Shown: positions 1,437 through 55,264, counted from the stretch's first letter. The stretch is 64,000 bases of DNA from an uncultured virus (IMG/VR IMGVR_UViG_2522572172_000008) (IMGVR_UViG_2522572172_000008); one strand, 5' to 3'. The notes: generated by a model from the sequence alone, not told the origin. Made by a program: numbers and translations.

Positions 1437-1838
1437 ATGTACGCAAAGATAATTCTAAAAACAGGTGAGTATCATTTCAAAACAGAATCACATTACAGAC
1501 CAGAAGAATTGGAAGCATTAATGCACAGAATAAACAATTGTTGGGAACAATTTAAAAAAGACAAAGAAATTTCCGATGTTTTTATCAGTAAGGTTAATAT
1601 AAAAGACAGATTCATCATTGAATACTTGGAGTGCTTCCAGAAATGGAAATTAACAGAAGCAGGAGATATTATTTCATTTGTTGACAATACTTCAAAAAAG
1701 AAAAGTTTTCATGTAAGTTTCATTTCGTTATGGCATTTAGGATTTTTCACTGTACCAAATAAAGATTTATTTAATACTCGTTGGGAATGCGACGTAAATG
1801 ACCGACAAGTTTCTCACAAAGGATATTCATATCTATAA
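1437..1838 (+). CDS. Hypothetical protein
   Basis: ORF with GAGGAG RBS, downstream of promoter motif 2. Confidence 0.7.
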   Translation: MYAKIILKTGEYHFKTESHYRPEELEALMHRINNCWEQFKKDKEISDVFISKVNIKDRFIIEYLECFQKWKLTEAGDIISFVDNTSKKKSFHVSFISLWHLGFFTVPNKDLFNTRWECDVNDRQVSHKGYSYL

Positions 1839-1884
1839 TAAAAATATAAAAAAGAGGTTACCTGATTTTTTCAGGAACCTCTTT

Positions 1885-4800: not shown

Positions 4801-4978
4801 TCAAATATTCATCGTCAGGCATATGAAACTCTCTTAATTCACCCATCTTTTTATACTTATCTTCTTTCCAGTGTTGCTCATCTAAAACCTCTCTTGCAAA
4901 ATACTGATGACCTCCATATTCACATGGAACCAATGTAGCATTAGGTGTTAACCAACCAATTAAAGAAGTCATAATCAC
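1885..4978 (-). other. Operon-like run of about 10 small hypothetical genes, several with CxxC zinc-ribbon motifs; includes an ORF at 3708-3887 missing from the ORF track
   Basis: Tightly packed minus-strand ORFs with RBSs; 3708-3887 reads MDAIIQEKSLN...NSRKN* (59 aa). Confidence 0.65.
2094..2495 (-). CDS. YopX family protein
   Basis: ILFRGK...VGQYIGLKD...GDIV...IEVIGNIYDNKDLL signature. Confidence 0.8.
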   Translation of the reverse strand: MILFRGKPIEDYGDIKWFYGNAVMNYEDNLAYIESPGQGFVPVEFESVGQYIGLKDSSDEKQMVFAGDIVVGKRQSHWHGGYDNVKGVVCFSDANFGFEVNGEGGGDLHSIESIEVIGNIYDNKDLLDNEYNK

Positions 4979-5050
4979 TCATCCTTTTCTGTAAATTTCA
5001 TTGACTATAGTTTATAAAGACTTTATGATAATATCATGGAGGAGATTAAA

Positions 5051-5734
5051 ATGTCAAGAATTCAAATAACTGGAGATATACATGGTATTTTAGATGTACA
5101 AAGGATATTAGAGATAGACTACTTAACAACAAATGATTATGTTATCGTTGTGGGGGATTTTGGATTTCCATGGAATAACTCAAAAAAGGAAAAGAATTTA
5201 TTTCAACAATTGGTTGCAAAGCCATTTACAACTTTATTTATAGATGGCAATCATGAAAATTTCACGTTGCTAAATAAGTATGAGGAGAAAACATGGAACG
5301 GTGGGAAAGTTCATTTCTTAAGCGACAATATTATTCACCTCATGCGTGGGCAAGTTTTTACGATAAACAACAAGAAGTTTTTTACTTTTGGTGGTGCATC
5401 ATCAACAGATAAATACAGAAGAATGAACGGAATTGATTGGTGGGAGGAAGAGCTTCCTTCTTATGAAGAAATGGATGAAGGGATTTCTAATTTAGAAAAA
5501 CACAACTATAGTGTTGACTATGTACTTACACACACTTGCCGTACAGAAACATTAGAAATGCTATGTAGACTATATGGATTCCGTCCAAAACCAGATTGCT
5601 TAAATAAATACTTAGAATCTATATATAAAAATTTAAACTTTTCTCATTGGTATTTCGGGCACTATCATAAGGATTTACCACACGTAATGAGAAACGAAAC
5701 AGTTTTATTTCGTGAGATAAAAAATATCGAGTAA
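5051..5734 (+). CDS. Calcineurin-like metallophosphoesterase
   Basis: GDIHG, GDFG, GNHE, THT and GHYH motifs; ATG 5051 follows GGAGGAG. Confidence 0.9.
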   Translation: MSRIQITGDIHGILDVQRILEIDYLTTNDYVIVVGDFGFPWNNSKKEKNLFQQLVAKPFTTLFIDGNHENFTLLNKYEEKTWNGGKVHFLSDNIIHLMRGQVFTINNKKFFTFGGASSTDKYRRMNGIDWWEEELPSYEEMDEGISNLEKHNYSVDYVLTHTCRTETLEMLCRLYGFRPKPDCLNKYLESIYKNLNFSHWYFGHYHKDLPHVMRNETVLFREIKNIE

Positions 5735-5965
5735 CCCATTGTCAAAACGGGTTACTTTTTTTATATGAAATAAAATGATATGTTCATATGATTTTATTTT
5801 ATGCTCATATTTTGTTATCGCAATTACATTTAATAAATATAATATACAAACAACATACAATAGGAATACTTAATGGGTATAAAATTTAAAAGTTTTTTAC
5901 AGTGGACTATTTTTACATCATGGAGATATACAGTGGTTATGGCATATATAGGGGAGGAACAAACA

Positions 5966-6370
5966 ATGACATCGGTACTAAAATTAAAAACAACAGAAAC
6001 AATGGAGAATGAATTAGGAGCGTTTTTGAAATCAGAAAGAAACAAGAAAAAATTATCTTTGGAAAAAGTAGCGAAAGCAATCGGAGTAAGTGCATCATAT
6101 TTACATCGTTTAGAGAATGGAGATAGAAAAAACCCTTCTATCGCAGTCTTGGAACAACTTTGTGAATTCTTTTCACTTAATCCTCAAAAGGTTTTAGAAA
6201 TGGCAGGGCTTTCAAAAGAATCTATGATTCGTGTTGATAATATAAAGATTCCTTTATCACAAATAGAAAATCTTGCTTCATTCATGTTGAAGCTTGACCT
6301 CACTGACTTTACACAAGTCATTACTTTAAAAGAGGAAGTTGAAAAGTTTCAAAACAAATTTAATAAATAA
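5966..6370 (+). CDS. XRE-family HTH transcriptional regulator
   Basis: LSLEKVAKAIGVSASYLHRLENGDRKNPS; GGGGAGG RBS before ATG 5966. Confidence 0.85.
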   Translation: MTSVLKLKTTETMENELGAFLKSERNKKKLSLEKVAKAIGVSASYLHRLENGDRKNPSIAVLEQLCEFFSLNPQKVLEMAGLSKESMIRVDNIKIPLSQIENLASFMLKLDLTDFTQVITLKEEVEKFQNKFNK

Positions 6371-6400
6371 AAAAAGACAGATATATTCTGTCTTTTTTAT

Positions 6401-6664
6401 TTATTCATTTACTTCATAATACACTCTGCCTTCAATTTTATCTTCTATCCTCTTAATATCTGGGTACTCTACAAGAACGGTTTTACCACCGTCTATATCC
6501 CCCACTTGGCATAATAAACCTTCAGGTTTACACTCATAGGCGTTTGCACGATATAACTTCTTACCATTTGTTGTGATGAATAAGTCCGTTTTTACATCTT
6601 TTATAAAAAACATAATAACTGATTTTAAATCATTTAACGATTCGCTTTTTCTTTTCAAACTCAT
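6401..6664 (-). CDS. Hypothetical protein
   Basis: ORF with GGGGAG RBS. Confidence 0.6.
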   Translation of the reverse strand: MSLKRKSESLNDLKSVIMFFIKDVKTDLFITTNGKKLYRANAYECKPEGLLCQVGDIDGGKTVLVEYPDIKRIEDKIEGRVYYEVNE

Positions 6665-6757
6665 TCATATCTCTCCCCTGTCAATTCACTCTCTACTTAT
6701 AGTCTAACCAAATTTTTTTTAGAAAACAAGCTTGATTATAGTCAATGAAATTACAGG

Positions 6758-7813
6758 TTAGTACTCCTCATCTAATTCAAAATCAGGTTGTAAAAACTGT
6801 TTCTTTTTGCTCTTCCTTTGATGTATTGCTTCAATAGATTTTTGAATAGGTTTTTGTTTTTCCTGTAACTGTGCTGTTTTTTCTGCTCCCTGTTCCCTTT
6901 CTATTTTAGGCATCTTTTTCATCATTTTCTTTTTATGATTCAATCCAATCCGCATACAATCTTCTGCGTCTTCTACAAGATTCAAAATACCTAAGACAAC
7001 AGAACGTTCCCCTTTTTCATTTTTGGTTTCACAAATAATCTCATTACGTCCTCTTCCTACAAATTCTTTATAACTGTAATAGACTTGTTGTTTTTGGTAA
7101 TAAATAGAATCCTCATAAATGAGAGAGTTCATAAACACAAAGTTATTAATATTAGGCTCTAACATAGCCTCATAATCGCCCCGTTCATCAATCATTTGCT
7201 TTTTACTTTGCATAAAGAGTGTACTTCCAATACAATAATCATCTCCACAAGACAGTAATAATTCCACAAATGGAAGATAGTATTGAGAGTCATCAATATA
7301 GACAAAGTGAGGCGATACTTTTGTATCTTCATTCACTTGCATACTTAGTTGCAATTGAGATAATAGCATTGCAGTAGCTCTAATACCATCATCCCCATTC
7401 ACTACGTATTCCATATCAATAATAACTATCATCTTTTTACTAATGACCTCTTCATAATCAATAATCTCTTCCTTTACTCGGTTATATTCATAACTTTGAA
7501 ATTCAAGAATTTTTCTTGCCTTTTCATCTATACTCGGTTTCAAGAATACAACTTTTCTCTTTGCTTTCTTGGCCATGCCATACAACATACAAGAAATGTC
7601 TTTCCTCCCTACAATAAAAGTCGCACCACACTCTTTATTGTTAATATCTTGTTGTGCCATTAATGGTAGCATTTCGGTGGTTTTTCCTGTATTTTTAGAG
7701 CCTATAACCAACGTATTCCCTAAACGATGAATCCCATTAATATTAGATTTATCAGTGATTTTCAATGCGAATTCTTCTTTTGTCAATAATTGTTCATTCA
7801 TAGCATAAAACAC
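6758..7813 (-). CDS. Short P-loop protein resembling VirD4/TraG coupling proteins
   Basis: Walker A GSKNTGKT and PHFVYIDD Walker B-like segment. Confidence 0.5.
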   Translation of the reverse strand: MFYAMNEQLLTKEEFALKITDKSNINGIHRLGNTLVIGSKNTGKTTEMLPLMAQQDINNKECGATFIVGRKDISCMLYGMAKKAKRKVVFLKPSIDEKARKILEFQSYEYNRVKEEIIDYEEVISKKMIVIIDMEYVVNGDDGIRATAMLLSQLQLSMQVNEDTKVSPHFVYIDDSQYYLPFVELLLSCGDDYCIGSTLFMQSKKQMIDERGDYEAMLEPNINNFVFMNSLIYEDSIYYQKQQVYYSYKEFVGRGRNEIICETKNEKGERSVVLGILNLVEDAEDCMRIGLNHKKKMMKKMPKIEREQGAEKTAQLQEKQKPIQKSIEAIHQRKSKKKQFLQPDFELDEEY

Positions 7814-43407: not shown

Positions 43408-44249
43408 TTAGATATTTTTATACTTTTCCTGCAATGTTAGAATTTCATTTGGTAATTTTTCATACCATGCAGGTAAAGAAAATTTAAATAAGTAATGTCG
43501 GCAAGCCTTATATTGCTTCTGAATTGATTTGTACGGATGTTTGTTTACATTATGAGCATTGCATTTAAAAACCATTTCTAAGAATACCAGATACCTTTTA
43601 AAGCATCGTTGAACGACTTCAATAGCAGGTTTTTGTACACTTTTATTCCGAACAACCCCCAATCGACAACCTATTAAATATTTAAGAACATCTCGTTCTT
43701 CCATAATGGCCTCTTTTTCCGACAATTTAATCCCCCACGATTCTAATAAAGAATGACCAAATTTAGGTTTCTCAAATTGACGTAATATATCATCATAGTG
43801 ATTTTGAATATCTGCTATTGCTTGAAAATACTTTACATGCACTTCTATCACTCTTTTCTCTATTCATCTTCTAATATCGCTAATGATTCACGAACCACTT
43901 TCATTTCTTTTCCTAATACACACAAAACACTATATATATCTATCCCGTAATCATATCTTGATAGATTCAATTCATCTGTAACATCTGCCCCATTAAATAG
44001 ATTAAATGCAACAGCAATTATCATTCTTTTCTTTTCGTTGAACTCATTATTTAAAGCTTCAAAAAGTTTTTGATTGTACTTCATATAAGAACCGTCAAAA
44101 GAATACAACTGACTAACCATTTCATTTGAACACTCTATTGATGTTAGTAAGTAGATGATTGCACGTTCTTTTTTCGATTTTATATAGGAAATAAAATGAT
44201 TGTATTGCAACTGATGAGACTCATTAACAAAATCCATATATACATTCAC
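43408..44249 (-). other. Two hypothetical genes
   Basis: ORFs 43408-43851 and 43860-44249 behind palindrome promoter 44293. Confidence 0.6.
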
Positions 44250-44413
44250 CCTTCTCTATCACTTTCGTTGTAAACAAATAGTACAACAACCATCAACTAT
44301 AGTCAATAATTAGTATTTACGTAAGTAAAAAATTATTTACGGAAAAGATTTATTTCCTCCTTTTGATTTGATATAATTAAACGGTAGCATACCTAATAAA
44401 GGAGCTGTCCCTA

Positions 44414-44818
44414 TTGAAATTAATTATTTCTAATAAAAGTAAATCGAATAGGATATCAAACATACATTCTGAACCAAACACAACTTTATTTCTTTCAGAT
44501 GAAGAAATAAAGATGTCAAAAGCATTAATAGAAAAAGAATTGTTTTTTATAAAAACACAACAATCAAAATCCATAGAAGAAAAGGATGTTGAAAGTGTTT
44601 CATTTTGGAATTTGATGGAATCTATGTTTAAAGCCACATATAAGAAATTAAAACCTAAAACACAATTGAATTTTGGAGAGTTAGATAGTTACTACGGAGT
44701 TATAGAAATGAATGTAGTCGATATGACAAAGACCATATTTACGAAGGAGTCTGTTAGGACAATACAATCTTTAAAATCAAAAATACAAGCTATACACCAT
44801 GAATGTATAGTTGAATAA
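44414..44818 (+). CDS. Hypothetical protein
   Basis: AAGGAG RBS, TTG start. Confidence 0.6.
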   Translation: MKLIISNKSKSNRISNIHSEPNTTLFLSDEEIKMSKALIEKELFFIKTQQSKSIEEKDVESVSFWNLMESMFKATYKKLKPKTQLNFGELDSYYGVIEMNVVDMTKTIFTKESVRTIQSLKSKIQAIHHECIVE

Positions 44819-44832
44819 AGGAGAGATTTTCT

Positions 44833-44991
44833 ATGAAAGTTGGAGAAAAACACATTTGTCCTCATTGTGGCAGTTCAAATACAAAATGTTTAGGTCATGG
44901 TGGATACAAACAAGGCCCAAATGGATTCGGGGATAAAACAACATTAGTTGCCTATCAATGTGATGATTGCAATCAGTCATTCAAAGAGTAG
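44833..44991 (+). CDS. Zinc-ribbon mini-protein (52 aa), not in ORF track
   Basis: AAGGAG RBS; MKVGEKHICPHCGS...YQCDDCNQSFKE*. Confidence 0.7.
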   Translation: MKVGEKHICPHCGSSNTKCLGHGGYKQGPNGFGDKTTLVAYQCDDCNQSFKE

Positions 44992-45044
44992 ATGAATATA
45001 TAAGAGAAGCTTCATAACAATTAGATTAGGAGGTGCTTTTTTAC

Positions 45045-45515
45045 ATGGATGGTTTTTGCACAGATGTTTTAGAAATCGCTAAATACTTTATTTTTAAGGG
45101 TAAAAATAGCGAAAAATATAGGGTAACAAACACGAAACTACATAAATTACTCTATTTTTCTCAAGGGTTTCATTTAGCTATTGAAAATAAACCGATTTTT
45201 CTTGAAGAGATTTATATGTTTGAACATGGTCCACTTATAAAATCAGTTCATGAAAAATACAGAAAGTACACTTATCATACAATTCCTGAAGAATGTAATG
45301 ATGACTTTTCGTTTAATCAAGAGACACGGGAATTTCTGGATGATATATGGAATCTATTTAAATTATATACGTCTAAAGTATTAGAAGAAATTATAACTAA
45401 CGATGAGCCATGGAAACGTGCAAGAGAAAATTTATTTTTATATCAAATACCTACTGAACCTCTTGATTTAAATTTCACAAAGGAATACTTTAAGAAAGAA
45501 TACATTGTTGCTTGA
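45045..45515 (+). CDS. Panacea/DUF4065 (SocA-like) antitoxin domain protein
   Basis: TNTKLHKLLYFSQG, HGP and EPW motifs. Confidence 0.85.
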   Translation: MDGFCTDVLEIAKYFIFKGKNSEKYRVTNTKLHKLLYFSQGFHLAIENKPIFLEEIYMFEHGPLIKSVHEKYRKYTYHTIPEECNDDFSFNQETREFLDDIWNLFKLYTSKVLEEIITNDEPWKRARENLFLYQIPTEPLDLNFTKEYFKKEYIVA

Positions 45516-45856
45516 AGATTTCATATAAAACATAAAATCTATATAAAAGGAGTAAGAAACGTGATAAACCGATTTTTCAAAGATATGCCTAAGGAATTAA
45601 ACACTACAGGTAAATGGAGAATTGAGATATTAGCAATTTTCCCAATGAAAGAGAATGTTGTTTATAGCACTACTTATCAAGGACGTTTATGGGTTGCCTA
45701 TATTAAAGTGAGGCTTAAAGCATTATTAAAGGATTGGTCAACAAGTGGAGATTACTATGGAGTTGGGTGGCGTATTAAAAAAGAAAGTTAATAAAAAGCA
45801 TCTCGTTACATAAAAAAGACGCATAGAGAAAAAACTCATGCGTCTTCTTCGTGTGT

Positions 45857-46663
45857 TTATTGTTTGTTGTTCCTATTCCTATCATTTCTTGTAGTTAACA
45901 ATTCTCCAGGACTTAAAGAATCATAGAATGGTGCAGTTGGAGCAACCCATAGTACGCCAGAACCTGAGAAAGTTTGTAATACCCCTTCACCACTTAGCAT
46001 CGTTCCTGTTAAGCTCTTCGCTGACTTCTCTACACTGAATCGAATATCTCCAGAACGTAAGATTGCAAAATTACCATCTATTTGTGCTTTTTCGTTATCT
46101 AAGTAGTATTCGATAATTTCACTTCTTGGTACAGGTAATGCTAAAACAACTAAACCTGTTCCCTTCAATGAAGTTTGAAAAAATCCTTCGCCCCCAAAAA
46201 CAGCAGAACTTATATTTTTTTGAGAAGTAGGCTCTACAGCTATGTTTGCGGTACTACAACAGAACATCCCTTTATCAACAATAACTTCTTCATTATTAAG
46301 TTGCATGATTGCATAATGCTTCAAAGTTGGTTCTAAATAAATTTCTCCTACACCTCTATATACAGGTTTAACCGCTGATTCACTTGTTACAGTACCTTTC
46401 ATAACATTTTTTAATAGTCCTGTTACACCACCATTTTTCACTTCACACTCGATATTCCCTTTTAACATGTATAGTGCCCCTGCTTCTGTTTTTACAGAGC
46501 CATTCTTTAATGTAATTCGAATTTGTTTAAAAGTAACGTGAGCTTCTTTTGCAAAATATAACTTCATTGCATTATCAACATCTCTCGCTCCTTTTAATTG
46601 GGGCACTTCTAATATTTCAATCTTCATTTGTTCTGTCTCTTCTACTTCTAATACTTTATACAT
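45857..46663 (-). CDS. AIM24 family protein (TRAP-like fold)
   Basis: EAGALY, GEIYLEP, FGGEGFFQT and GEGVLQTFSGSG motifs. Confidence 0.85.
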   Translation of the reverse strand: MYKVLEVEETEQMKIEILEVPQLKGARDVDNAMKLYFAKEAHVTFKQIRITLKNGSVKTEAGALYMLKGNIECEVKNGGVTGLLKNVMKGTVTSESAVKPVYRGVGEIYLEPTLKHYAIMQLNNEEVIVDKGMFCCSTANIAVEPTSQKNISSAVFGGEGFFQTSLKGTGLVVLALPVPRSEIIEYYLDNEKAQIDGNFAILRSGDIRFSVEKSAKSLTGTMLSGEGVLQTFSGSGVLWVAPTAPFYDSLSPGELLTTRNDRNRNNKQ

Positions 46664-46758
46664 ACAATCATCTCCTTTTATACATGATTGTTGTATTGTA
46701 GAAAAAAGCGTGAGGAACTATTCGATAATAAAAAAAGATGAGGGTTTTACCCCTCATC

Positions 46759-48339
46759 TTACAATTCAATACTTTCAATTTCTTTCATTTGGTCTCCATC
46801 TGATTCAATAATCGTTCTTACTAAATCCAATAATCTATCAGAATACCCTCTTACATAAATGACTGAGCTATCTTTAGATACTTTATGACCTGATTCGGCT
46901 AATTGCCAAATGATTAGCTTTGCTCCCGTTTTTTGGTTAATCTTCAACCATGCACGTTCTAAATTATCAGCAGATTCATTATCCGTAAAAAGAATGACAA
47001 AATCTTCGTTTTTATACGCATTAAGCAACTGACTGAAATTAGTCCCGTATCCCACCATCGTAGATTCAATTTTATCCGCCATTTCAAAAACGTTATCTTG
47101 ACTACGTAGTTCTACTTTTTGTGACGTTGTAGCCACTGCAACGACCTCTGTATTATTATGAGATTTTTTAACCATGGCTCCAAATAGTGTAGCGATTTCC
47201 ATAGGAGATAACCCTCCAAGCACACCAGAAGTCATAGAGCCAGAAGTATCTACGCCCACTTTCAAGCTTTTGTTCTCATTAATAGAAAACGCTTCTTGTG
47301 CTACATCACGAAGTAACTTCCCTAAGGCTTTTTGGAACTCAGGAGTCACAACTTTCTTATTCGCCTGAATTAACGCAAATGGCAACATGTGAGAACGTTT
47401 ATATGCTTCTTTATCTGCAATTTTCGCAGAGACCATATCAACAATTTCTGATGGAATGTTCGTTTCAATTACAACGTCTTGTTTAAAGAACTGACCAATA
47501 CTTGGATTATAGACCTCTTCTTTACTAACCTCTGTTGCAAATACACGTTCTAAAGCAACTAAGTTTAAAATAAGTGCATTGTAATTTAAACGCTCATAAA
47601 CGGTTGCATATAAACGTTGCTTATCTTCTGGTAATAACGTAGAAACAGAATGCTTCACTTCTTCTAACTGAATAGAATGCTCTCGGACTAAACTATCCAT
47701 ATATAATGAATACTGTCCTGTTTCCAATCCACTAATAACAATCTTTAATGCTGTAGCTCGTGGGAATGTCAATTCTCCTTTTGAAACATATCTCATCAGC
47801 TTTTGAAAATCTTCATCTTTTGCTAAAGGTCTCGTAACTTTAGCAATATCACTAATTTTATTTTTATAACGAGTGGCTTGATATTCATTAATAAGTTGAA
47901 TAAAACGATTGTTTACTTCTCTTTTTACAGAGCGTCCTAATCCTTTTCGAATACCGCCTTTTCGTGAAATCTCAACAAAGTTATAGAGCATATTGAAATT
48001 GCGAATTATTAGTGGGAATGATTTTTTAAACAAGGACTTATCTTCTAATGTAGAAATATAAACCATCCAAATTGTTGGGACCAGTTTTAACTTCCCTTCA
48101 ACAGCTCCATAAATCGCACATTTCGTTGCAAACTCTGGTTCTTCTTTTAAAGCTCGTTGGAATAACTCCCCTGCATTTTTTAATACATCTTCTTGCTTTG
48201 TATAAAAAGTTCCATTTAATAATCCTAAGGTAAATAATTCGACCAATCGTTCTTTAAAACTATTCTTATATGCCAATGCTCCTTCTTTTGTTAACATCAT
48301 ATCAGGATTCATAGCTTTTACTTTATCAATTGTATTCAT
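46759..48339 (-). CDS. rsr: Ro60-like TROVE/vWA RNA-binding protein (526 aa)
   Basis: TKEGALAY and GTFY N-terminus, GLGRSVKR, vWA MIDAS DTSGSM...GT...TDNE; AAGGGG RBS before ATG 48339. Confidence 0.85.
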   Translation of the reverse strand: MNTIDKVKAMNPDMMLTKEGALAYKNSFKERLVELFTLGLLNGTFYTKQEDVLKNAGELFQRALKEEPEFATKCAIYGAVEGKLKLVPTIWMVYISTLEDKSLFKKSFPLIIRNFNMLYNFVEISRKGGIRKGLGRSVKREVNNRFIQLINEYQATRYKNKISDIAKVTRPLAKDEDFQKLMRYVSKGELTFPRATALKIVISGLETGQYSLYMDSLVREHSIQLEEVKHSVSTLLPEDKQRLYATVYERLNYNALILNLVALERVFATEVSKEEVYNPSIGQFFKQDVVIETNIPSEIVDMVSAKIADKEAYKRSHMLPFALIQANKKVVTPEFQKALGKLLRDVAQEAFSINENKSLKVGVDTSGSMTSGVLGGLSPMEIATLFGAMVKKSHNNTEVVAVATTSQKVELRSQDNVFEMADKIESTMVGYGTNFSQLLNAYKNEDFVILFTDNESADNLERAWLKINQKTGAKLIIWQLAESGHKVSKDSSVIYVRGYSDRLLDLVRTIIESDGDQMKEIESIEL

Positions 48340-48386
48340 CTTAACACGCCCCTTTTGAATATATGGTTTTTTAAATTTAAAACTAA

Positions 48387-48433
48387 AAGAATGAGCCACA
48401 AGAAGATGTATTATCCTCTCATGGCTCATTCTT
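48387..48433 (-). terminator. Long hairpin plus U tract between the RNA array and the ro60 gene
   Basis: AAGAATGAGCCA/TGGCTCATTCTT outer stem extended by G-U pairs, followed on the minus strand by TTAGTTTT. Confidence 0.6.
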
Positions 48434-48461
48434 CTAAAACATGTAACATGTTTATATAAAA

Positions 48462-48626
48462 CATAACGAAGAAGAAGGTGCAAGACAGTGGAGGCTGTAA
48501 AGTATCTAATCTTTTAAAAGAGTAGATACTTGCACGTTATTTTTATTCACATACAAAACACAAAATTCATTTTAGATTTTAATATCTTTAATCAAATTAA
48601 TGTAGTCTTGCAAGCACCTCGTTATG
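48462..48626 (-). ncRNA. Y-RNA-like element, class I copy 3
   Basis: CATAACGAGG-TGCT-TGCAAGAC-TACAT...GTCTTGCA-CCTTCTT-CTTCGTTATG. Confidence 0.7.
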
Positions 48627-48664
48627 ATTTTTTCTACGAAATGTAGAAAGTATAAGAAATGAGC

Positions 48665-48784
48665 TTTGAGGGAGAAGTAATAAGACAGGTGTGAATGTTT
48701 TTTCGTATGAGTGTACGCATAAACAATCCAAGTTTATTTTTTAAAATTTGTCGTATTTGTATGTAGTCTTATCAGCACCTCAAA
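48665..48784 (-). ncRNA. Y-RNA-like element, class I copy 2
   Basis: TTTGAGG-TGCT-GATAAGAC-TACAT...GTCTTATT-ACTTCTC-CCTCAAA. Confidence 0.7.
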
Positions 48785-48873
48785 ATATAAGCAGAAAAAG
48801 AGTAGCTTTCACAATTCCTCTTCTGGTATTAAGAAAAGAAGAGCTTCCACAGTTCTTTTCTTTAAAAAAAGTA

Positions 48874-48988
48874 AGTTATAACTTGAGTAGTCTCCAACCT
48901 AATCAACTACCCTTATTAACTCTTCACCTGTTCCGTAAACATGTGGCGAAATTAATAGGAACCATCCATTTATCTTCATGTTCCAACC
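48874..48988 (-). ncRNA. Structured RNA, class II copy 2
   Basis: GGTTGGAAC...TGGAT..TTCC...GAGTT...TGATTAGGTTGGAG...GTTATAACT, paralogous to 49041-49154. Confidence 0.6.
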
Positions 48989-49040
48989 GTATTTTCGATA
49001 AAAATCGAGATAACTCTACTTACAAAAAATAGAATCATTT

Positions 49041-49154
49041 AGTTATAACCTTGACGACCTCCGACCCAATCATCAACATCAACTCCATAGCAACAAGGTT
49101 AACACCTTTTACTATAGAATTGACGGGAATCTATCCACCGATATAGTTCCAACC
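49041..49154 (-). ncRNA. Structured RNA, class II copy 1
   Basis: GGTTGGAAC...TGGAT...TTCC...GAGTT...TGATTGGGTCGGAG...GTTATAACT. Confidence 0.6.
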
Positions 49155-49195
49155 ACTATTTTTTATGTAAACTCATCATAAGTGTGTTTTACATT

Positions 49196-49270
49196 CTAAC
49201 AAGGAAGAAGGTGCAAGACGTTAGTCCTTTTGGTAAGCTGTCAAATGTAGTCTTGCAAGCACCTCATTAA
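49196..49270 (-). ncRNA. Y-RNA-like element, class I copy 1 (minimal, 75 nt)
   Basis: TTAATGAGG-TGCT-TGCAAGAC-TACAT...GTCTTGCA-CCTTCTT-CCTTGTTAG. Confidence 0.7.
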
Positions 49271-49280
49271 CTATATTTAA

Positions 49281-49309
49281 ATTATAAATTAATTATATAC
49301 TATAGTCAA
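49281..49309 (-). promoter_or_regulatory. sigmaA promoter of the RNA array; -35 lies in the palindromic operator
   Basis: TTGACT-17 bp-TATAAT, with predicted start a few nt before class I copy 1. Confidence 0.8.
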
Positions 49310-49385
49310 TAAAAATATTATATTTTTTTATTTTATATAGTCTTATAAAATGAATTTTTTATTTCAACTTCAATATAATAGATAG

Positions 49386-49610
49386 TGATTCCTGTTGACC
49401 AAGCAACATAATAACTCGATAAGGGAGAATAGACACCTCATCCCGTCTTTCTGGACTTCGGGTGCCAGTGTCGTTGGCAGACAACATACAAATCTGTTAT
49501 ATACATCTTGAGGTTAGATGGTTGGCGAGCAACATAAAAACTTGGTGATTGTATGTTATCTTCCTAACATACAAATAAAAAAGCAGACCCTAAAAGGTCT
49601 GCTTTTCTCT
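49386..49610 (+). ncRNA. Candidate structured RNA divergent from the array
   Basis: TATAAT at 49374; nested stems, UUCG loop, ACCTCA/TGAGGT loop complementarity; terminator 49576-49610. Confidence 0.5.
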
Positions 49611-50374
49611 TATGCTCCTGCTGTAATACCGCCATCAGCCATTACTGTACTACCGACCATACAAGAAGACTCATCAGATGCTAAGAAAGCAACAATGTTC
49701 GCAATCTCTTTTGGTTGAATTGCACGTCCAAGCTTCTGAATTGCAGGTAATTCTTTTAGTACTTCTTCACGCCCTCCAAATAATTCTGCATGTGCATCAT
49801 TGAAAGTTGTATCTACCCATCCTGGACAAACACCATTCACACGAATGTTATCTTTAGCAAAATCAATTGCCATTTGTTTCGTTAACATCTTAATAGCACC
49901 CTTTGAAGTGACATATGCAGATAGTCGTTGCTCTGCAAATTCACTATTCGCTGAAGCCATATTTACAACCGCACCACCACCTGCTTTCTGCATATAAGGA
50001 AGCACGTACTTCGCCATTAAAAAGTATGATTTTACATTCACATTCATTGTTTTTTCCCAATTCTCTTCAGAAAGTTCAATGACAGAGCCAGGAATATTTA
50101 CACCTGCGTTATTTGATAAGATGTCAATTCGTCCAAATTTATCAAATGTATAGTCTACGACACGTTTTACCGCATCTGCATTTGAAACATCCGTATAAAC
50201 AAAGAACACCTCATGTCCTTGTCTTCTTAGCTCTACTGCTAATGCATTCCCCTCTTTTTCTAACACATCTGCAATGACTACTTTCGCACCTTCATCTATG
50301 AATTTACGAACAATAGCTCCTCCAATTCCTCGGGCTCCACCTGTTACAATTGCTACTTTATTTTCTAATTTCAT
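49610..50374 (-). CDS. Short-chain dehydrogenase/reductase
   Basis: TGGARGIG, NNAG and YVTSK motifs. Confidence 0.93.
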   Translation of the reverse strand: MKLENKVAIVTGGARGIGGAIVRKFIDEGAKVVIADVLEKEGNALAVELRRQGHEVFFVYTDVSNADAVKRVVDYTFDKFGRIDILSNNAGVNIPGSVIELSEENWEKTMNVNVKSYFLMAKYVLPYMQKAGGGAVVNMASANSEFAEQRLSAYVTSKGAIKMLTKQMAIDFAKDNIRVNGVCPGWVDTTFNDAHAELFGGREEVLKELPAIQKLGRAIQPKEIANIVAFLASDESSCMVGSTVMADGGITAGA

Positions 50375-50484
50375 ATCTATCTACCTTCTCTCTTTTTATT
50401 TATGTATTTTATTTATCTGTTTTCTAAAAAATAGAACACAAAGATAAATCATCTATGTGTTCTATGTATTTATTATTTTGTTTA

Positions 50485-51819
50485 TTACATATTCTCGATT
50501 TTAGGGACGATTTTATAACCTTTTGATTTAATCGCACCAATTACAATCCCCACGAATACCCATGAGAAACCTGCACCATAAGCAAGCATGTCAAATCCTG
50601 TCCATACGTAACCACATACTAAGATACCTACCATAGGAGCCATTACATGTAATAAGAAACCTTTAATACCTCTCTGTTTCTTTTTAAAGAAGAAGTAATA
50701 AATAACTGCCATGTTTAAAACAGTAAATGATGTTACTGCTCCAAAGTTAATGAACATCAAAACTGTTGGAATAGAACCTACTAAGATAATAATTGTAGAA
50801 ATTACACCCGCAGTAATAATTGAGTTAACTGGAGTATCATGTTTCGAATGTAATTTAGCAAAGAAGCCAGAGAACGGTAAAATATTGTCTCGTCCCATTG
50901 CATACATGATACGTGATACAGCAGATTGAATGTTTAATGTAGTTGCTACTCCCGCTGATAAAACATTCACAATAATCATAAATTGGAAGAATCCATTCCC
51001 ACCAATTTCTTTAGCAATATCGAATAATGCCATTTCTTCATTTAAATCTGCATGATTTGGATGAGCTAATGTTGCAACATATGTTAATACTAAGAATAGT
51101 AAACCTGTGCAAATTAGTGAGCCAACTGTAGCTAAAGGAATATGCTTTTTAGGATTCTGTGATTCCTCAGATAATGTACTTACACAGTCAAATCCCATGA
51201 AGCCCATTACTGTAATAGAAATAACTGTGGCGAAGAATTTCCAATCAATATGTTCTGGTTGGAATAGTGGTGCTAACGAAAATCCACCTGTACCATGACC
51301 ATCAACAAAGACATATTTAATTGCCAACCCTACGAAAACAACTAATCCAATTAATTGAACGTAAAATAGAATATTATTTACTTTTGCGTTTACTTCAATT
51401 CCTTTTACGTTAATGATTGTATTTACAAGAACAAAGAATAAACTCCAAACAACTGGATTTACACCAGGAACTAAACCTGACATCCAAAGACCTGCAAAAC
51501 TATAAACAAGACCTGGAGCTAAAATATAGTCGGCCAGCAATGTCCAACCTGCCACAAAACCTACATGAGGATTTACCCCTTTCGATACAAAGGTATAAAC
51601 TGAACCTGCATGTAAAAACTCTTTACTAAACTGTGCATAACTTAATGCGGTAAAGAACATTAAAATCATTCCGATGAAGTACACCAGTGGTGCCATTCCG
51701 AAACTTTGATTTGTCACCATCCCGTAAACTTGGAATGGAGCAAGCGGTGACATACTTACCATTCCATAAATAATTAATTGTCTCAATGATAGAGACCTGT
51801 GCAGATGTTGTTCATTCAT
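50485..51819 (-). CDS. APC-family amino acid/polyamine permease
   Basis: About 12 TM helices; AGSVYTF and GFDCVSTLSEE motifs; GGAGG RBS before ATG 51819. Confidence 0.9.
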   Translation of the reverse strand: MNEQHLHRSLSLRQLIIYGMVSMSPLAPFQVYGMVTNQSFGMAPLVYFIGMILMFFTALSYAQFSKEFLHAGSVYTFVSKGVNPHVGFVAGWTLLADYILAPGLVYSFAGLWMSGLVPGVNPVVWSLFFVLVNTIINVKGIEVNAKVNNILFYVQLIGLVVFVGLAIKYVFVDGHGTGGFSLAPLFQPEHIDWKFFATVISITVMGFMGFDCVSTLSEESQNPKKHIPLATVGSLICTGLLFLVLTYVATLAHPNHADLNEEMALFDIAKEIGGNGFFQFMIIVNVLSAGVATTLNIQSAVSRIMYAMGRDNILPFSGFFAKLHSKHDTPVNSIITAGVISTIIILVGSIPTVLMFINFGAVTSFTVLNMAVIYYFFFKKKQRGIKGFLLHVMAPMVGILVCGYVWTGFDMLAYGAGFSWVFVGIVIGAIKSKGYKIVPKIENM

Positions 51820-52154
51820 ACAACTATCAACCTCCAACTTTATAAAATTTTTATACACTCAAATGCAGAATCTATAATAAACATCGTTCAATATGTTTCC
51901 ATCTACAACTGCTGTCGTGCTTAGTTATATTAGCATGATTCGACAACTACCGTCAACTATAGTCAATGAAATATTTTTAATTTTATTTTGGTTAATGAAT
52001 TTTTATGCATTTTTACCACAAGGTAGTAGATTGTATTTTTACTCGTATAATAAAGGTTATAGAAACTATGAAAGGTTACCGAAAAATTGTCCAAAATAAA
52101 AAAGTTACCGTTTTAACGGTAACTCATTCAAAAAAAGTATGTAATATAGAACTC

Positions 52155-54143
52155 TCATTCTTCTTTCTTCAATAAATGTTTGTAAAAAGCAGTACGTATA
52201 GGATTTTTTAGAATATCTTTAACCTCATTTCTAATTGATTCATTTAAATCCGTATTTCCTAACATCAACATGACATACTTATCTTGACCACTTTGGCTTG
52301 TCCCGATAAAATCACCTGTTCCCCTCAATTCTAAATCTTTTTCGGCAATGAGAAATCCATCCGTTGTTTCACACATCGTTTCTAATTTCCTTCGCCCCAT
52401 CTCTGTAGCTTTATCAGATAATAATAAGCAATAGGATTGATAGCTACCACGTCCAACCCTTCCTCTTAATTGGTGTAATTGAGCTAACCCAAAACGCTCT
52501 GCATTCTTAATAAGAATCACTGTTGCATTTGGCACGTTCACACCAACTTCAATAATCGTAGTAGATATAAAAATATCATATTCTTTATTTGCGAATTTTT
52601 CTAATTCAGCATCTATATCTTGTTGCTTCATTTTACCTGTAGCCATTCCTACTCGTATTCCTTTTGGTTCAAAATATGTTTTTGCTTTTGCAAATGCTTC
52701 TTCTACACTTTCCACATCTTTTAGCATGTCACTATTACTTTCTTCTACTAAAGGACAAACGACATATGCCTGTCTTCCGCTCTTCACTTCCTCATAAATC
52801 CTTCGATAAGAATCTTCTTCCACGGTTATCAACGTGGTCTCTACTGGCTTCCTTCCTTTCGGTAATGATTTAATATTCATCACATCTATCGAGTCACCAT
52901 GTATCGTCAGAGCTAAACTACGAGGAATAGGAGTCGCAGACATTGATATGGTATGAACACCTTTACTTGCTTTCAATTGAAGTAACTCCCTTTGTTTGAC
53001 ACCAAAACGATGTTCTTCATCTACAATTGTAAGTGCTAACGATTGAAACTCTACATCTTTGCTTAATACCGCATGAGTTCCTACGACTATATCTACTTCT
53101 CCTTCTTTTATGGCTTTAACAACCTTCTTTCGTTCTCTTACCTTCATGTCTCCCGAAAGATATGCTACCTTAATACCAAAAGAGGAAAATCGTTCCGTTA
53201 TCTCTTCATAGTGTTGTTTTGCCAACACACTTGTTGGACACATTAAGGCTCCTTGATAGCCATTTTCTACTGCCATTAATAAAGAAAAGATAGCAACCAT
53301 TGTTTTTCCACACCCTACATCTCCTTGGATTAAGGCATTCACTCTTTCTTTATTTTTCATTTTCTTTGAAATCATTCTTAAAGCATTTCTTTGTCCCTCT
53401 GTTAATTCAAAAGGCAATTCTCCCATTAGTTGTTTAGATAATTCGAATTTATCTATTTCAAATGGAGATTGCTTCATCTGATTATTTTCATTTTGCAATA
53501 AATTAAGGTTAAAAAAGAATAATTCATCAAATAAAAATCGACTTTTCCCTTCATTTATCTCCTCAGTAGTTTTCGGGAAATGAATATATTGAAGTGCTTT
53601 ACGAAAATAAATCATATCAAATTTTTTAATGATACTATTTTCAAGATATTCATCTGAACGCACAATCGAATACGCACTATTCATACATCTTTTTAAATAA
53701 TCATCACTCATTCCTTTTATTTTTGAATAAACAGGTAGAATTCCAGGATTTAATTCTGAAGATGGTCCATATAAGATAGGATTTGCCATAGAAACAAACT
53801 TTCTATATCCATACGTCACTGAGACTCTTCCACAAAATATATAAGACTCATTAATAGTAAACTTCTGAGCAATATAGGATTGATGAAAGAATGTAACATA
53901 AATAATAGATGCTTTACTATCTTCCACTTTTAAAATAACTGCATTGGGCTTCGTCTTTATTTCTTTCACAATACCTTTTATAGATTGATATTCATCAGGA
54001 ATAGCATCTTGTATTAAGGTTATCTCCCTAAAGTCATAATATTTACGTGGAAAAAATCGAATCAAATCCTCTACTGATTCTATTCCCTTCTTTACAAACT
54101 GATTTTCTTTTGCTTTTGGTATATTTAATAATTGTAGTTCGAT
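52155..54143 (-). CDS. recG: ATP-dependent DNA helicase RecG, probable ATC start
   Basis: QGDVGCGKT, DEEHRFGV, SATPIPRSL, QLHQLRGRVGRG and DLELRG motifs; RecG-like N-terminus extends to ATC 54143 after AGGGAGG. Confidence 0.93.
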   Translation of the reverse strand: MELQLLNIPKAKENQFVKKGIESVEDLIRFFPRKYYDFREITLIQDAIPDEYQSIKGIVKEIKTKPNAVILKVEDSKASIIYVTFFHQSYIAQKFTINESYIFCGRVSVTYGYRKFVSMANPILYGPSSELNPGILPVYSKIKGMSDDYLKRCMNSAYSIVRSDEYLENSIIKKFDMIYFRKALQYIHFPKTTEEINEGKSRFLFDELFFFNLNLLQNENNQMKQSPFEIDKFELSKQLMGELPFELTEGQRNALRMISKKMKNKERVNALIQGDVGCGKTMVAIFSLLMAVENGYQGALMCPTSVLAKQHYEEITERFSSFGIKVAYLSGDMKVRERKKVVKAIKEGEVDIVVGTHAVLSKDVEFQSLALTIVDEEHRFGVKQRELLQLKASKGVHTISMSATPIPRSLALTIHGDSIDVMNIKSLPKGRKPVETTLITVEEDSYRRIYEEVKSGRQAYVVCPLVEESNSDMLKDVESVEEAFAKAKTYFEPKGIRVGMATGKMKQQDIDAELEKFANKEYDIFISTTIIEVGVNVPNATVILIKNAERFGLAQLHQLRGRVGRGSYQSYCLLLSDKATEMGRRKLETMCETTDGFLIAEKDLELRGTGDFIGTSQSGQDKYVMLMLGNTDLNESIRNEVKDILKNPIRTAFYKHLLKKEE

Positions 54144-54298
54144 AGCAACCGCCTCCCTTTTATTTTTCTATTATTATGTTATTAACATAACCACAAAAAT
54201 AAAAAAGGTATGGTGCATAGGTGGTTCTACCATTTTTATTTATACTTCACTTCCATTTTACGTACTATATTCTATACAAAATGAAGGTGGTGGTAGAA

Positions 54299-55264
54299 AT
54301 GAAAGACTGGTTTTTAAAACTATTCAATAAAAATCCCAAAGATACGTCTACATATTTAAAATATGAAGATGGTGAAGTCATTCCATTAAAGACGACAAAT
54401 AAAAGTAAATTAAAAGACGATTTAATAGAAGAAGAAAAACAAAGCCAAACCGTTTTTAAAGAAGATGAACTCCCTAAGAACCGCTCTTTTGGAGGAAATA
54501 TACCGATGCAGTCACAAGAAAGGAAAAAGAAGTTTTCAAAGGTTATTATGTTGATATTTATCATTGTAATATTCGCTTCTTTTTGCCAGTTGTTTTATTA
54601 TTTCCTATCTAAGAATACGACAGTCATCAATAGCAATCATAAAATCGACAGCATAACAAAGAGTGTAAAAAATCAAAAAGAAGCAGAACCGACTAAAAAA
54701 ACGGAAACTACTGTAGAGGATAAATCTGTTTCTAAAACTGACCATTTTGAAAAAGAAAATGCAAAAACAATTGACGAGAAACCTATTTTTTCTTTTGGCC
54801 AAAAAGACTTAAAAGTAAAAAGCATGACAGATGAAAGAAAATCACTTCTCTCACTCTCTTCAGATACACACAATTTCATTTTAGATTCTCTATTAAAATT
54901 AAAATCTGAAGTTATCTTTTATGAAAAAGGGAAATCAAATAAATATATCTTTACGAACGAAACGGACAGATTAACACAACGTATAAACAATGCTAAATCA
55001 TCTCTACAAGCAAAAGAAAAAGAACTATATAATGAAGACATGTCTTCTATTTTTACAAATCTAAATGATAGATTAATTGCTTTAGATACATTAGTTCAAA
55101 CACTTAGAGCCATTGATAGAGAACAAATCATTGATACGACAAATGACTTCATTGAGAAAGAAAATAATACTTCCACTATTTATCAAGATGAATTTAAGAA
55201 GGTATTGGATTCTTATGGTATTACGTACAAAACAGATGAAGGAAAAATCACATATGCACTCTAA
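54299..55264 (+). CDS. Membrane-anchored hypothetical protein
   Basis: One TM segment; AGGTGG RBS. Confidence 0.6.
   Translation: MKDWFLKLFNKNPKDTSTYLKYEDGEVIPLKTTNKSKLKDDLIEEEKQSQTVFKEDELPKNRSFGGNIPMQSQERKKKFSKVIMLIFIIVIFASFCQLFYYFLSKNTTVINSNHKIDSITKSVKNQKEAEPTKKTETTVEDKSVSKTDHFEKENAKTIDEKPIFSFGQKDLKVKSMTDERKSLLSLSSDTHNFILDSLLKLKSEVIFYEKGKSNKYIFTNETDRLTQRINNAKSSLQAKEKELYNEDMSSIFTNLNDRLIALDTLVQTLRAIDREQIIDTTNDFIEKENNTSTIYQDEFKKVLDSYGITYKTDEGKITYAL

Follow-up and report, generated by a model that had tools for sequence, protein, structure and literature searches.

Type III toxin-antitoxin systems are laid out as a promoter, a structured RNA, a Rho-independent terminator and an endoRNase gene, and the published account of the class recognises only three families, all with ToxN-like toxins (PMC5086642). 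In the CptIN system of Eubacterium rectale the antitoxin CptI is described as an H-type pseudoknot whose two stems are coaxial, the first loop (L1) being a single G and the second (L2) long and rich in A (PMC4627078), while phage PhiTE is reported to carry a pseudo-ToxI mimic (PMC3475682). More recently, the abiF-motif RNA RCd22, which accompanies AbiF/Abi_2 in a C. difficile prophage, was found to act as an RNA antitoxin in cis and in trans (bioRxiv 10.1101/2025.04.15.648962). Here we describe an RNA of three interlocked pseudoknots encoded in a 64,000-nucleotide stretch of DNA catalogued as an uncultured virus (IMGVR_UViG_2522572172_000008; hereafter the window), whose relatives on plasmids and phages often adjoin genes for PBECR4 (PF18813), a predicted RNase. 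The region encoding it (49374-49610) is 100% identical to the Bacillus thuringiensis Bt407 megaplasmid BTB_502p (NC_018878.1, 361345-361581; 501,911 bp). From the gene order of its relatives we propose, at what we judge to be roughly an even chance, that the window RNA is a solo antitoxin-like member of this PBECR4-linked family.

The RNA is assembled from units that each comprise a 5' stem strand (S1a, GUUG), a loop of 5-6 nt, the complementary 3' strand (S1b, CAAC), about seven A-rich nucleotides and a tail, and the window holds three of them. Their wiring is crossed, in that loop 1 pairs with tail 3 (ACCAAG:CUUGGU in the window) and loop 3 with tail 1 (CGAG:CUCG), and loop 2 pairs with its own tail (GCAGA:UCUGU). 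Because the loop that S1 encloses finds its partner beyond that stem, every unit takes the form of an H-type pseudoknot whose first loop is a single base and whose other loop is long and rich in A, and together the three interlock as a single closed body. The elements of the window RNA are the following:

49374-49379, plus strand: -10 box TATAAT, with a weak -35 element ATGAAT at an 18-nt spacer, scored 9/12 by our own script
49394-49546, plus strand: conserved RNA core of three interlocked pseudoknot units and hairpins, matched by covariance model R1
49394-49418, plus strand: unit 1, with S1 GUUG (49394-49397) pairing with CAAC (49404-49407) around the loop ACCAAG (49398-49403)
49408-49418, plus strand: 3' part of unit 1, with the A-rich run AUAAUAA (49408-49414) and the tail CUCG (49415-49418)
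49423-49444, plus strand: insertion hairpin GGGA/UCCC whose loop holds ACCUCA (49435-49440), present only in the window RNA and in its relative L135
49451-49468, plus strand: hairpin H1, CUGG-AC(UUCG)GGUG-CCAG (CUGGACUUCGGGUGCCAG), the outer stem of which covaries among homologues
49473-49496, plus strand: unit 2, self-contained, with GUUG (49473-49476), loop GCAGA (49477-49481), CAAC (49482-49485), AUACAAA (49486-49492) and tail UCUG (49493-49496)
49504-49520, plus strand: hairpin H2, CAUCU-UGAGGUU-AGAUG, with a loop complementary to ACCUCA
49521-49546, plus strand: unit 3, with GUUG (49521-49524), loop GCGAG (49525-49529), CAAC (49530-49533), AUAAAAA (49534-49540) and tail CUUGGU (49541-49546)
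49547-49576, plus strand: window-specific hairpin with a fourth copy of the repeated motif (AACAUACAAAU), its 5' arm also complementary to unit 2 (49476-49491)
49577-49608, both strands: bidirectional intrinsic terminator common to the RNA and to a convergent glucose 1-dehydrogenase gene

A first-pass annotation of this DNA, made from the window sequence, had seen a symmetric internal loop with near-identical strands, CAACAUAAUAA (49404-49414) and CAACAUAAAAA (49530-49540), between the stems ACCAAG (49398-49403)/CUUGGU (49541-49546) and CUCG (49415-49418)/CGAG (49526-49529), a third copy of the motif, CAACAUACAAA (49482-49492), as a hairpin loop in UGGCAGA/UCUGUUA (read here as the loop of GCAGA/UCUGU), and a fourth in a hairpin before the terminator. 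Direct reading finds these stems, the TATAAT box and the C(UUCG)G hairpin (49451-49468) where that annotation had placed them. Its three stems are now recognisable as the two loop:tail helices that join units 1 and 3 and the one inside unit 2, the GUUG:CAAC pairing having been overlooked. The repeated AACAUA-type motifs are indeed kept in homologues, but they can no longer be viewed as free display sites, since their CAAC pairs with the upstream GUUG to close a 4-bp stem and their A-rich run is the long pseudoknot loop. The fourth copy, together with its hairpin, is missing in the closest homologue, L135, and is therefore not a family feature. A regular expression for the unit (GYYG, 5-6 nt, a complementary CRRC and a 7-nt stretch in which A occurs at least 4 times) matches only the three unit sites on both strands of the 64-kb window, and the RNA region folds at -64.9 kcal/mol (z -3.62), a value that none of 200 shuffles equalled.

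The crossed architecture is borne out by covariation. Alignment A3, a plain MAFFT alignment of 22 RNAs from which both the window RNA and L135 were excluded, forms standard pairs in 96.6% of cells, and both partners have changed in 17 of its 26 pairs (89 cells); not one of 500 shuffles attained the observed values, and sliding the partner by 1-3 columns brought pairing to 22-51%. S1 crosses the loop:tail helices, and double changes in helices 1-3, 5 and 6 support both sets. Among the individual RNAs (26 in all, three of them unparsed at unit 1), the cognate loop and tail form a run of at least 4 pairs in 23 of 23 for all three helices, and loops set against the tails of other RNAs reach such a run in 50% (P1), 37% (P2) and 79% (P3). 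The S1 stem of unit 1 appears as GGUG:CACC, GUUG:CAAC, GCUG:CAGC, GAUG:CAUC, AAUG:CAUU and AGUG:CACU, that of unit 3 also as GUCG:CGAC, GAUG:CAUC and GCUG:CAGC, and the hairpins between units covary in the same manner (CUGG/CCAG, CCAG/CUGG, CUAG/CUAG, CCGG/CCGG, CCCAG/CUGGG, CUGGG/CCCAG and others). The window element is a real, conserved structured RNA, and the first-pass description of a folded non-coding RNA holds up, the gene having both a -10 box and a terminator to itself.

Covariance model R1 (133 positions), built from A3 with the window RNA and L135 left out of the seed, has a single match in the window, at 49394-49546 on the plus strand (79.1 bits, E 3.8e-15), which spans model positions 1-133 of 133. 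The window RNA carries the three units that define the family (RNNG, a loop of 5-7 nt, CNNY and an A-rich strand), with all three loop:tail pairings. R1 finds one copy on the whole Bt407 plasmid NC_018878.1, one in an Aneurinibacillus genome and 65 matches in 79 metagenome loci. Several other searches contributed relatives: BLAST of the 237 bases against two genomes returned an Aneurinibacillus plasmid that carries both outer-helix arms about 80 nt apart, followed by a terminator on the same strand; plasmid and phage searches brought up Pediococcus pentosaceus plasmids and Brochothrix phages, each matching in part; and a degenerate pattern for the last unit retrieved 22 viral loci, many of them near-identical, with a similar one retrieving 83 metagenome stretches. 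A 17-mer search allowing 2 mismatches across 401 Bacillales genomes gave chance-level matches only, like its reversed-pattern control. The Rfam search bears out that the RNA is uncatalogued: a cmscan with Rfam 15 has 0 gathering-score hits in the window and only chance-level ones at E <= 10 over 48400-49700, and no Rfam family, including ROOL, GOLLD, STAXI, the DUF3800 motifs and abiF, covers the RNA in 15 related loci. Together, these searches define a widespread, uncatalogued RNA of plasmids and phages.

One of the viral loci (L064) matched SPbeta-like phages of B. subtilis such as phi3T, where the RNA occupies the long stretch that separates yonN from yonK and points the same way as the late genes; a literature search on yonN together with yonK found nothing, and AimX of phi3T and the type I systems of SPbeta, considered as candidates for this RNA, were dropped as the yonN-yonK position does not fit them. 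In the same phages a DUF3800-VIII RNA (RF03075) is found approximately 150-250 nt downstream of the pseudoknot units (L059, 1826-1891; L064, 1713-1778). In Brochothrix phage A9 (L052, 1656-2219) the RNA comes after a ROOL RNA and tRNAs, which lie directly upstream in what is a cluster of phage non-coding RNA genes, and in two other phages it is located within tRNA clusters.

The closest relative of the window RNA is the metagenomic L135 (of which L156 is a fragment), with 81% identity across the RNA vs. 53% and 41% in the flanks. Four double changes between the two are compensatory, with H2 holding two of them and H1 and P3 one each, and the loop:tail pairing of unit 2 has gone from CAGA:UCUG to CAGG:CCUG. 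This contrast in identity, together with the compensatory changes, indicates that solo copies are under structural selection. The same comparison bears on a kissing interaction that the first-pass annotation had proposed between ACCUCA (49435-49440) and UGAGGU (49509-49514). Both do lie in hairpin loops and are complementary, forming a 6-bp duplex of -7.0 kcal/mol, and L135 leaves both unchanged while the bases around them change: its H2 reads CCUCC-UGAGGUU-GGAGG, with two compensatory stem changes and the same loop, and its insertion hairpin keeps ACCUCA though 4 loop bases upstream differ. The interaction is plausible, yet the pair is unproven because it shows no covariation and only two RNAs carry the insertion.

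What recurs beside the RNA is a nuclease gene. On a Pediococcus plasmid a terminator and a ribosome-binding site come after the RNA and lead into a gene that Pfam assigns to PBECR4 above its cut-off (E 7.5e-19), and among open reading frames (ORFs) 3' of the RNA in other loci 12 of 24 are PBECR4 above the Pfam curated cut-off, with one weak match. A hidden Markov model of the PBECR4 proteins was also run against six-frame fragments of all loci, which hold 64 distinct RNAs, 12 of them with insufficient downstream DNA and 52 testable; 25 of the 52 adjoin a PBECR4-like gene, 19 with the gene downstream on the same strand and 6 in convergent orientation, and a terminator separates RNA and gene in seven of the eight loci checked. 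The reverse test started from PBECR4 genes found by tblastn, which lie on 93 plasmid records (76 of them Enterococcus). When six such loci were scanned with R1, the RNA was found beside PBECR4 in four, namely phage phi1605 (Erysipelothrix) and plasmids of Avibacterium (4.3 kb), E. faecium and L. salivarius, the last again convergent, which brings the convergent loci to seven. The adjacency is seen in Bacilli, Clostridia and Erysipelothrix and, on a plasmid of 4.3 kb, in a gammaproteobacterium. R1 detects no RNA upstream of the PBECR4 gene of Butyrivibrio pCY360, where inspection by eye shows a promoter, a region of about 170 nt with one variant pseudoknot unit, and a terminator. The SPbeta-like and Brochothrix phages, like the window, carry the RNA with no adjoining PBECR4; as 27 of the 52 testable members are solo, a missing PBECR4 is a variant of the family and not a ground for exclusion from it.

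Some of these loci have features of their own. In L167 (E. faecium pEfm732558-vanA, 1294-2055; the one Enterococcus plasmid scanned) the RNA-PBECR4 module sits between an integrase and an IS3 element, and all three S1 stems are GGUG:CACC. In four metagenome loci whose RNAs make up one clade (L079, L085, L123 and L137) the terminator and some 130-140 nt are followed by a conserved 122-aa protein (MDAVSTINEW...), near-identical in L085 and L123, copies of which from L079 and L137 have no Pfam family, the L079 copy also having no NCBIfam, PHROG or PADLOC match, and in L112 a GNAT acetyltransferase lies downstream of the RNA. The 122-aa protein and the GNAT enzyme are possible alternative toxin partners.

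PBECR domains, which occur in phages and conjugative elements, have been defined as endoRNases predicted to be metal-independent and to adopt the BECR fold, and they conserve a His as well as a Thr/Ser near the C terminus (Iyer et al. 2017, PMC5512222); the portion of that paper available mentions no RNA partner. The proteins found here share an F-x-H-L-T/C-G motif and a Thr-x-x-Lys that never varies, and almost all have a Pro that is mostly part of P-N-T. Pfam assigns them to PBECR4 only; they have no NCBIfam or PADLOC hit, and their PHROG hits are only to families of unknown function. Against the PDB neither single-sequence nor profile searches returned a relative; the structure predicted for the protein is confident (pLDDT 89). 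The literature search found no paper that ties PBECR or BECR nucleases to an RNA antitoxin; its coverage stopped short of a 2026 bioRxiv preprint on BECR classification, which may bear on novelty.

How the RNA might act can be read from these arrangements. At the convergent loci it cannot be a 5' leader, and the convergent and solo arrangements together argue that it acts in trans, which leads us to read the family as an RNA antitoxin of PBECR4; the usual order at linked loci, with promoter, RNA, terminator and nuclease in succession, is that of a type III toxin-antitoxin operon. The RNA would accordingly be expected to bind and neutralise the PBECR4 nuclease, possibly after the nuclease has cut the A-rich linkers, and the megaplasmid may keep its solo copy to weaken PBECR4 toxins that arrive with other plasmids or phages, as an anti-addiction or counter-defence device. 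It is in this narrower sense, of an RNA that would bind and neutralise one nuclease, that the sponge or scaffold suggested by the first-pass annotation could survive; the idea of an RNA displaying motifs to proteins does not.

Comparison with the described systems lends this antitoxin reading its outline and also marks where it departs from them. As in CptIN, the pseudoknots combine a first loop of one base (G) with a long loop rich in A, the RNA comes after its promoter and is separated from the endoRNase gene by a Rho-independent terminator, and gut Firmicutes and mobile DNA are among the carriers. In contrast to CptIN, the candidate toxin is assigned by Pfam to PBECR4 (PF18813) and not to CptN or ToxN, the RNA linked to it is also found convergent or solo, and the units are dissimilar and cross-paired into one body, whereas CptI consists of identical repeats that are cut into monomers. 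ToxIN and the reported pseudo-ToxI of PhiTE provide a pseudoknotted antitoxin RNA of an abortive-infection RNase and a phage that carries such an RNA with no toxin, and it is by likeness to pseudo-ToxI that a counter-defence role of the solo copies suggests itself; there is no recognisable sequence or toxin-family relation, however, and the ToxI pseudoknot has triplexes and identical 36-nt repeats. RCd22 is likewise a structured RNA with repeated motifs beside an Abi-type toxin gene, and so sets an example of a type III-like pair that does not belong to any of the three classical families, but its RNA motif is another one and its partner Abi_2 is HEPN/Cas13-like, as opposed to the BECR-fold PBECR4.

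A more far-reaching proposal, which we offer tentatively and consider somewhat improbable as a whole, is that the RNA and PBECR4 make up a fourth, unrecognised type III toxin-antitoxin or abortive-infection family, the first with a BECR-fold toxin, in which the three cross-paired pseudoknots may hold several nucleases in a closed ring, the solo copies being RNA counter-measures (anti-addiction or anti-defence) and the window copy, beside rsr and a Y-RNA-like array, belonging to an island that copes with RNase attack. What would be new here is a type III-like system that joins a new toxin family to a cross-paired RNA architecture and is present in the window as the RNA on its own. If this is so, the type III class would be widened by a BECR-fold nuclease family with a cross-paired three-pseudoknot RNA, the PBECR4 genes on those 93 plasmid records would gain a function and a partner, and plasmids as well as temperate and lytic phages of Bacillus, Brochothrix and others would be carrying the RNA on its own, probably as a natural decoy against the toxin. 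The fold, which is compact, strongly covarying and absent from Rfam 15, is in any event a good target for structure determination.

Expression was assessed from transcription signals and from public RNA sequencing (RNA-seq) data. A promoter-like site (at least 9/12, no more than 90 nt upstream) precedes 24 of 35 family RNAs vs. 16% of control positions, and a terminator-like site follows 21 of the 35 vs. 13% of controls. In the window itself a separate tool's promoter scan does not list the TATAAT promoter at 49374-49379; the transcript probably starts near 49386 and ends at the terminator, near 49608. Twenty public runs contain part of 48400-49700, and in one RNA contig run a contig covers 49404-49800+ at a depth of 16.4, joined to the dehydrogenase gene and with an adapter-marked fragment end at 49404. 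It is the promoters and terminators of the homologues and the co-orientation with phage tRNA genes that argue for transcription of the plus strand, which accordingly stands as a prediction from sequence.

A number of observations weigh against the antitoxin reading of the window RNA. More than half of the testable RNAs (27/52) have no PBECR4 within approximately 1.5 kb, and the rows of the association include near-identical loci, so that the counts are not independent. The window RNA itself is accompanied by no PBECR4-like frame at 44001-55000 or anywhere on the 501,911-bp plasmid, and the PBECR4-like gene on another B. thuringiensis plasmid, pBMB26, a weak homologue (E 5e-6), has no R1-detectable RNA. 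Where type III operons have RNA, terminator and toxin gene in succession, as some relatives do, the window has a convergent dehydrogenase; and where ToxI or CptI have near-identical tandem repeats, the window units have unlike loops and tails, with a different hairpin in each gap between them, although some relatives (L102, L126 and L144) do have near-exact repeats. For the PBECR4 model, Foldseek returned nothing at E <= 0.001 (weak RelE rows at ranks 26 and 47) and in the VIA wide search Z did not exceed 4.2 (3.1 for T4 RegB), with no clear solved-fold match, which still leaves room for a fold shared with ToxN, CptN or TenpN, so that the assignment as an RNase goes back to Pfam and Iyer et al. 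2017. The RNA-seq signal is weak, as its contig is strand-blind and continuous with the neighbouring gene, and a second RNA contig run has no coverage of the RNA. Finally, we infer binding, neutralisation and processing from gene order alone.

Some of these observations would be expected if the RNA had another job in mobile elements, for instance as a sponge or decoy for a host RNA-binding protein or RNase, as a nuclease activator or sensor, or as a self-assembling RNA body, with PBECR4 a frequent neighbour for a different reason and the window copy doing that same job. Besides the RNAs with no PBECR4 nearby, such a job would account for the phage copies that sit among tRNAs, ROOL and DUF3800-VIII RNAs or in the yonN-yonK gap, and for the variety of downstream genes, which include the 122-aa no-family protein (L079, L137) and the GNAT enzyme (L112); we nevertheless think it unlikely, albeit deserving of serious attention, in view of a PBECR4 adjacency that holds in both search directions and across distant taxa, of an internal-terminator layout that fits RNA antitoxins, and of the precedent that the reported PhiTE mimic sets for solo copies in phages (PMC3475682). 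An improbable alternative is a cis-acting leader, riboswitch-like or an attenuator built of tandem pseudoknot aptamers, that controls read-through into PBECR4 and of which the solo copies would be relics after gene loss. The 19 loci with the RNA 5' of the nuclease gene and an intrinsic terminator in between have the arrangement of such a leader, and the compact H-type pseudoknot, with its A-rich tail, is reminiscent of the preQ1-I and SAM-II aptamers. The seven convergent PBECR4 loci do not have that arrangement, however, and neither does the window, whose RNA faces the convergent dehydrogenase with no plus-strand gene following. Solo copies moreover retain promoter, terminator and, through compensatory changes, their pairing, and Rfam has no riboswitch match at E <= 10 or E <= 1.

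The neighbourhood of the window RNA had suggested yet other partners, Ro60 and AIM24, to the first-pass annotation, and a scaffold or sponge for the neighbouring Ro60 (Rsr) or AIM24, that is, a Y-RNA-like partner of the rsr locus, is favoured by the position of the RNA, approximately 1 kb from rsr and divergent from the promoter of a Y-RNA-like array. Like bacterial Y RNAs, it adjoins rsr and a Y-like array; unlike them, it has another architecture, no Rfam match, including to Y_RNA, and a linkage to rsr that is not conserved, which makes Ro60 or AIM24 very unlikely partners. R1 has no match at E < 0.1 in any of 12 other rsr loci (0/12), the closest relatives (L135, L156 and L013, Aneurinibacillus included) have no Y-like or rsr-type motif nearby, the RNA on the Aneurinibacillus plasmid lies some 310 kb from rsr, and the window RNA does not contain the array arm GAGGUGC-N4-AAGAC; the recurrent neighbour is instead the PBECR4 RNase. 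There is, lastly, a very slight chance that no RNA gene exists here, that the RNA-seq signal is minus-strand read-through from the dehydrogenase gene and that the conserved sequence acts as DNA. The only RNA-seq contig at the site is indeed strand-blind and continuous with that gene, but covariation has preserved base pairs and not sequence, and in homologues the plus sense is the one with promoters and terminators and matches the direction of phage tRNA genes.

The surroundings of the RNA in the window comprise the following genes:

45857-46663, minus strand: AIM24 gene
46759-48339, minus strand: Ro60/TROVE (rsr) gene, with an ORF that extends to 48483 (574 aa, mechanical call) and a likely start at the ATG at 48339
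49610-50374, minus strand: glucose 1-dehydrogenase gene, convergent with the RNA, with an amino-acid permease and RecG as further neighbours

Approximately 1.1 kb of non-coding DNA separates the Ro60 gene from the three-pseudoknot RNA, and, in agreement with the earlier description of a GC-richer RNA, the G+C content of the RNA region is 0.43-0.45 vs. 0.15-0.17 immediately upstream. Close downstream of AIM24 the Bt407 record annotates a SocA/Panacea-type antitoxin-domain protein, flanked by small hypothetical genes (45033-45515 and 44414-44818, both on the plus strand), which places a second toxin-antitoxin-related element in the neighbourhood of the window RNA.

The non-coding DNA upstream of rsr, at 48468-49309, is probably an array of Y-RNA-like genes. 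A strong sigma-70-type promoter on the minus strand (TTGACT, 17 nt, TATAAT; 49309..49281, 11/12) drives three hairpin modules on the same strand as rsr, at 49269-49201, at 48785-48668, where the module is degenerate and shows two compensatory changes from GC to AU, and at 48624-48468. Their arms read GAGGUGCUUGCAAGAC on the 5' side and GUCUUGCACCUUC on the 3' side and form a stem with a 4-nt bulge that resembles the Ro-binding helix of Y RNAs; the array has no Rfam match. When up to 3 mismatches are allowed, 10 of 12 rsr loci from other Bacillota also have the 5' arm motif, in 1-9 copies that lie upstream of rsr and on its strand; the 12 loci come from a scan of genome contigs with Ro60, and none is closer than 56% identity. 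RNA-seq contigs cover the array at 48477-49261 in one run and at 48493-49227, at a depth of 1600-7000, in another, with adapter-marked ends at 49134, 49136, 49182 and 49227. Between the last module and the rsr ATG at 48339, and within the 574-aa ORF, a 24-bp imperfect hairpin with a U-run (48384-48436, minus strand) has the appearance of a terminator or attenuator. The spacer between array modules 3 and 2 further contains two similar segments of about 38 nt (48872-48910 and 49041-49078; AGUUAUAAC...CUCCRACC...AUCAAC on the plus strand), both of which lie in the most deeply covered RNA-seq stretch.

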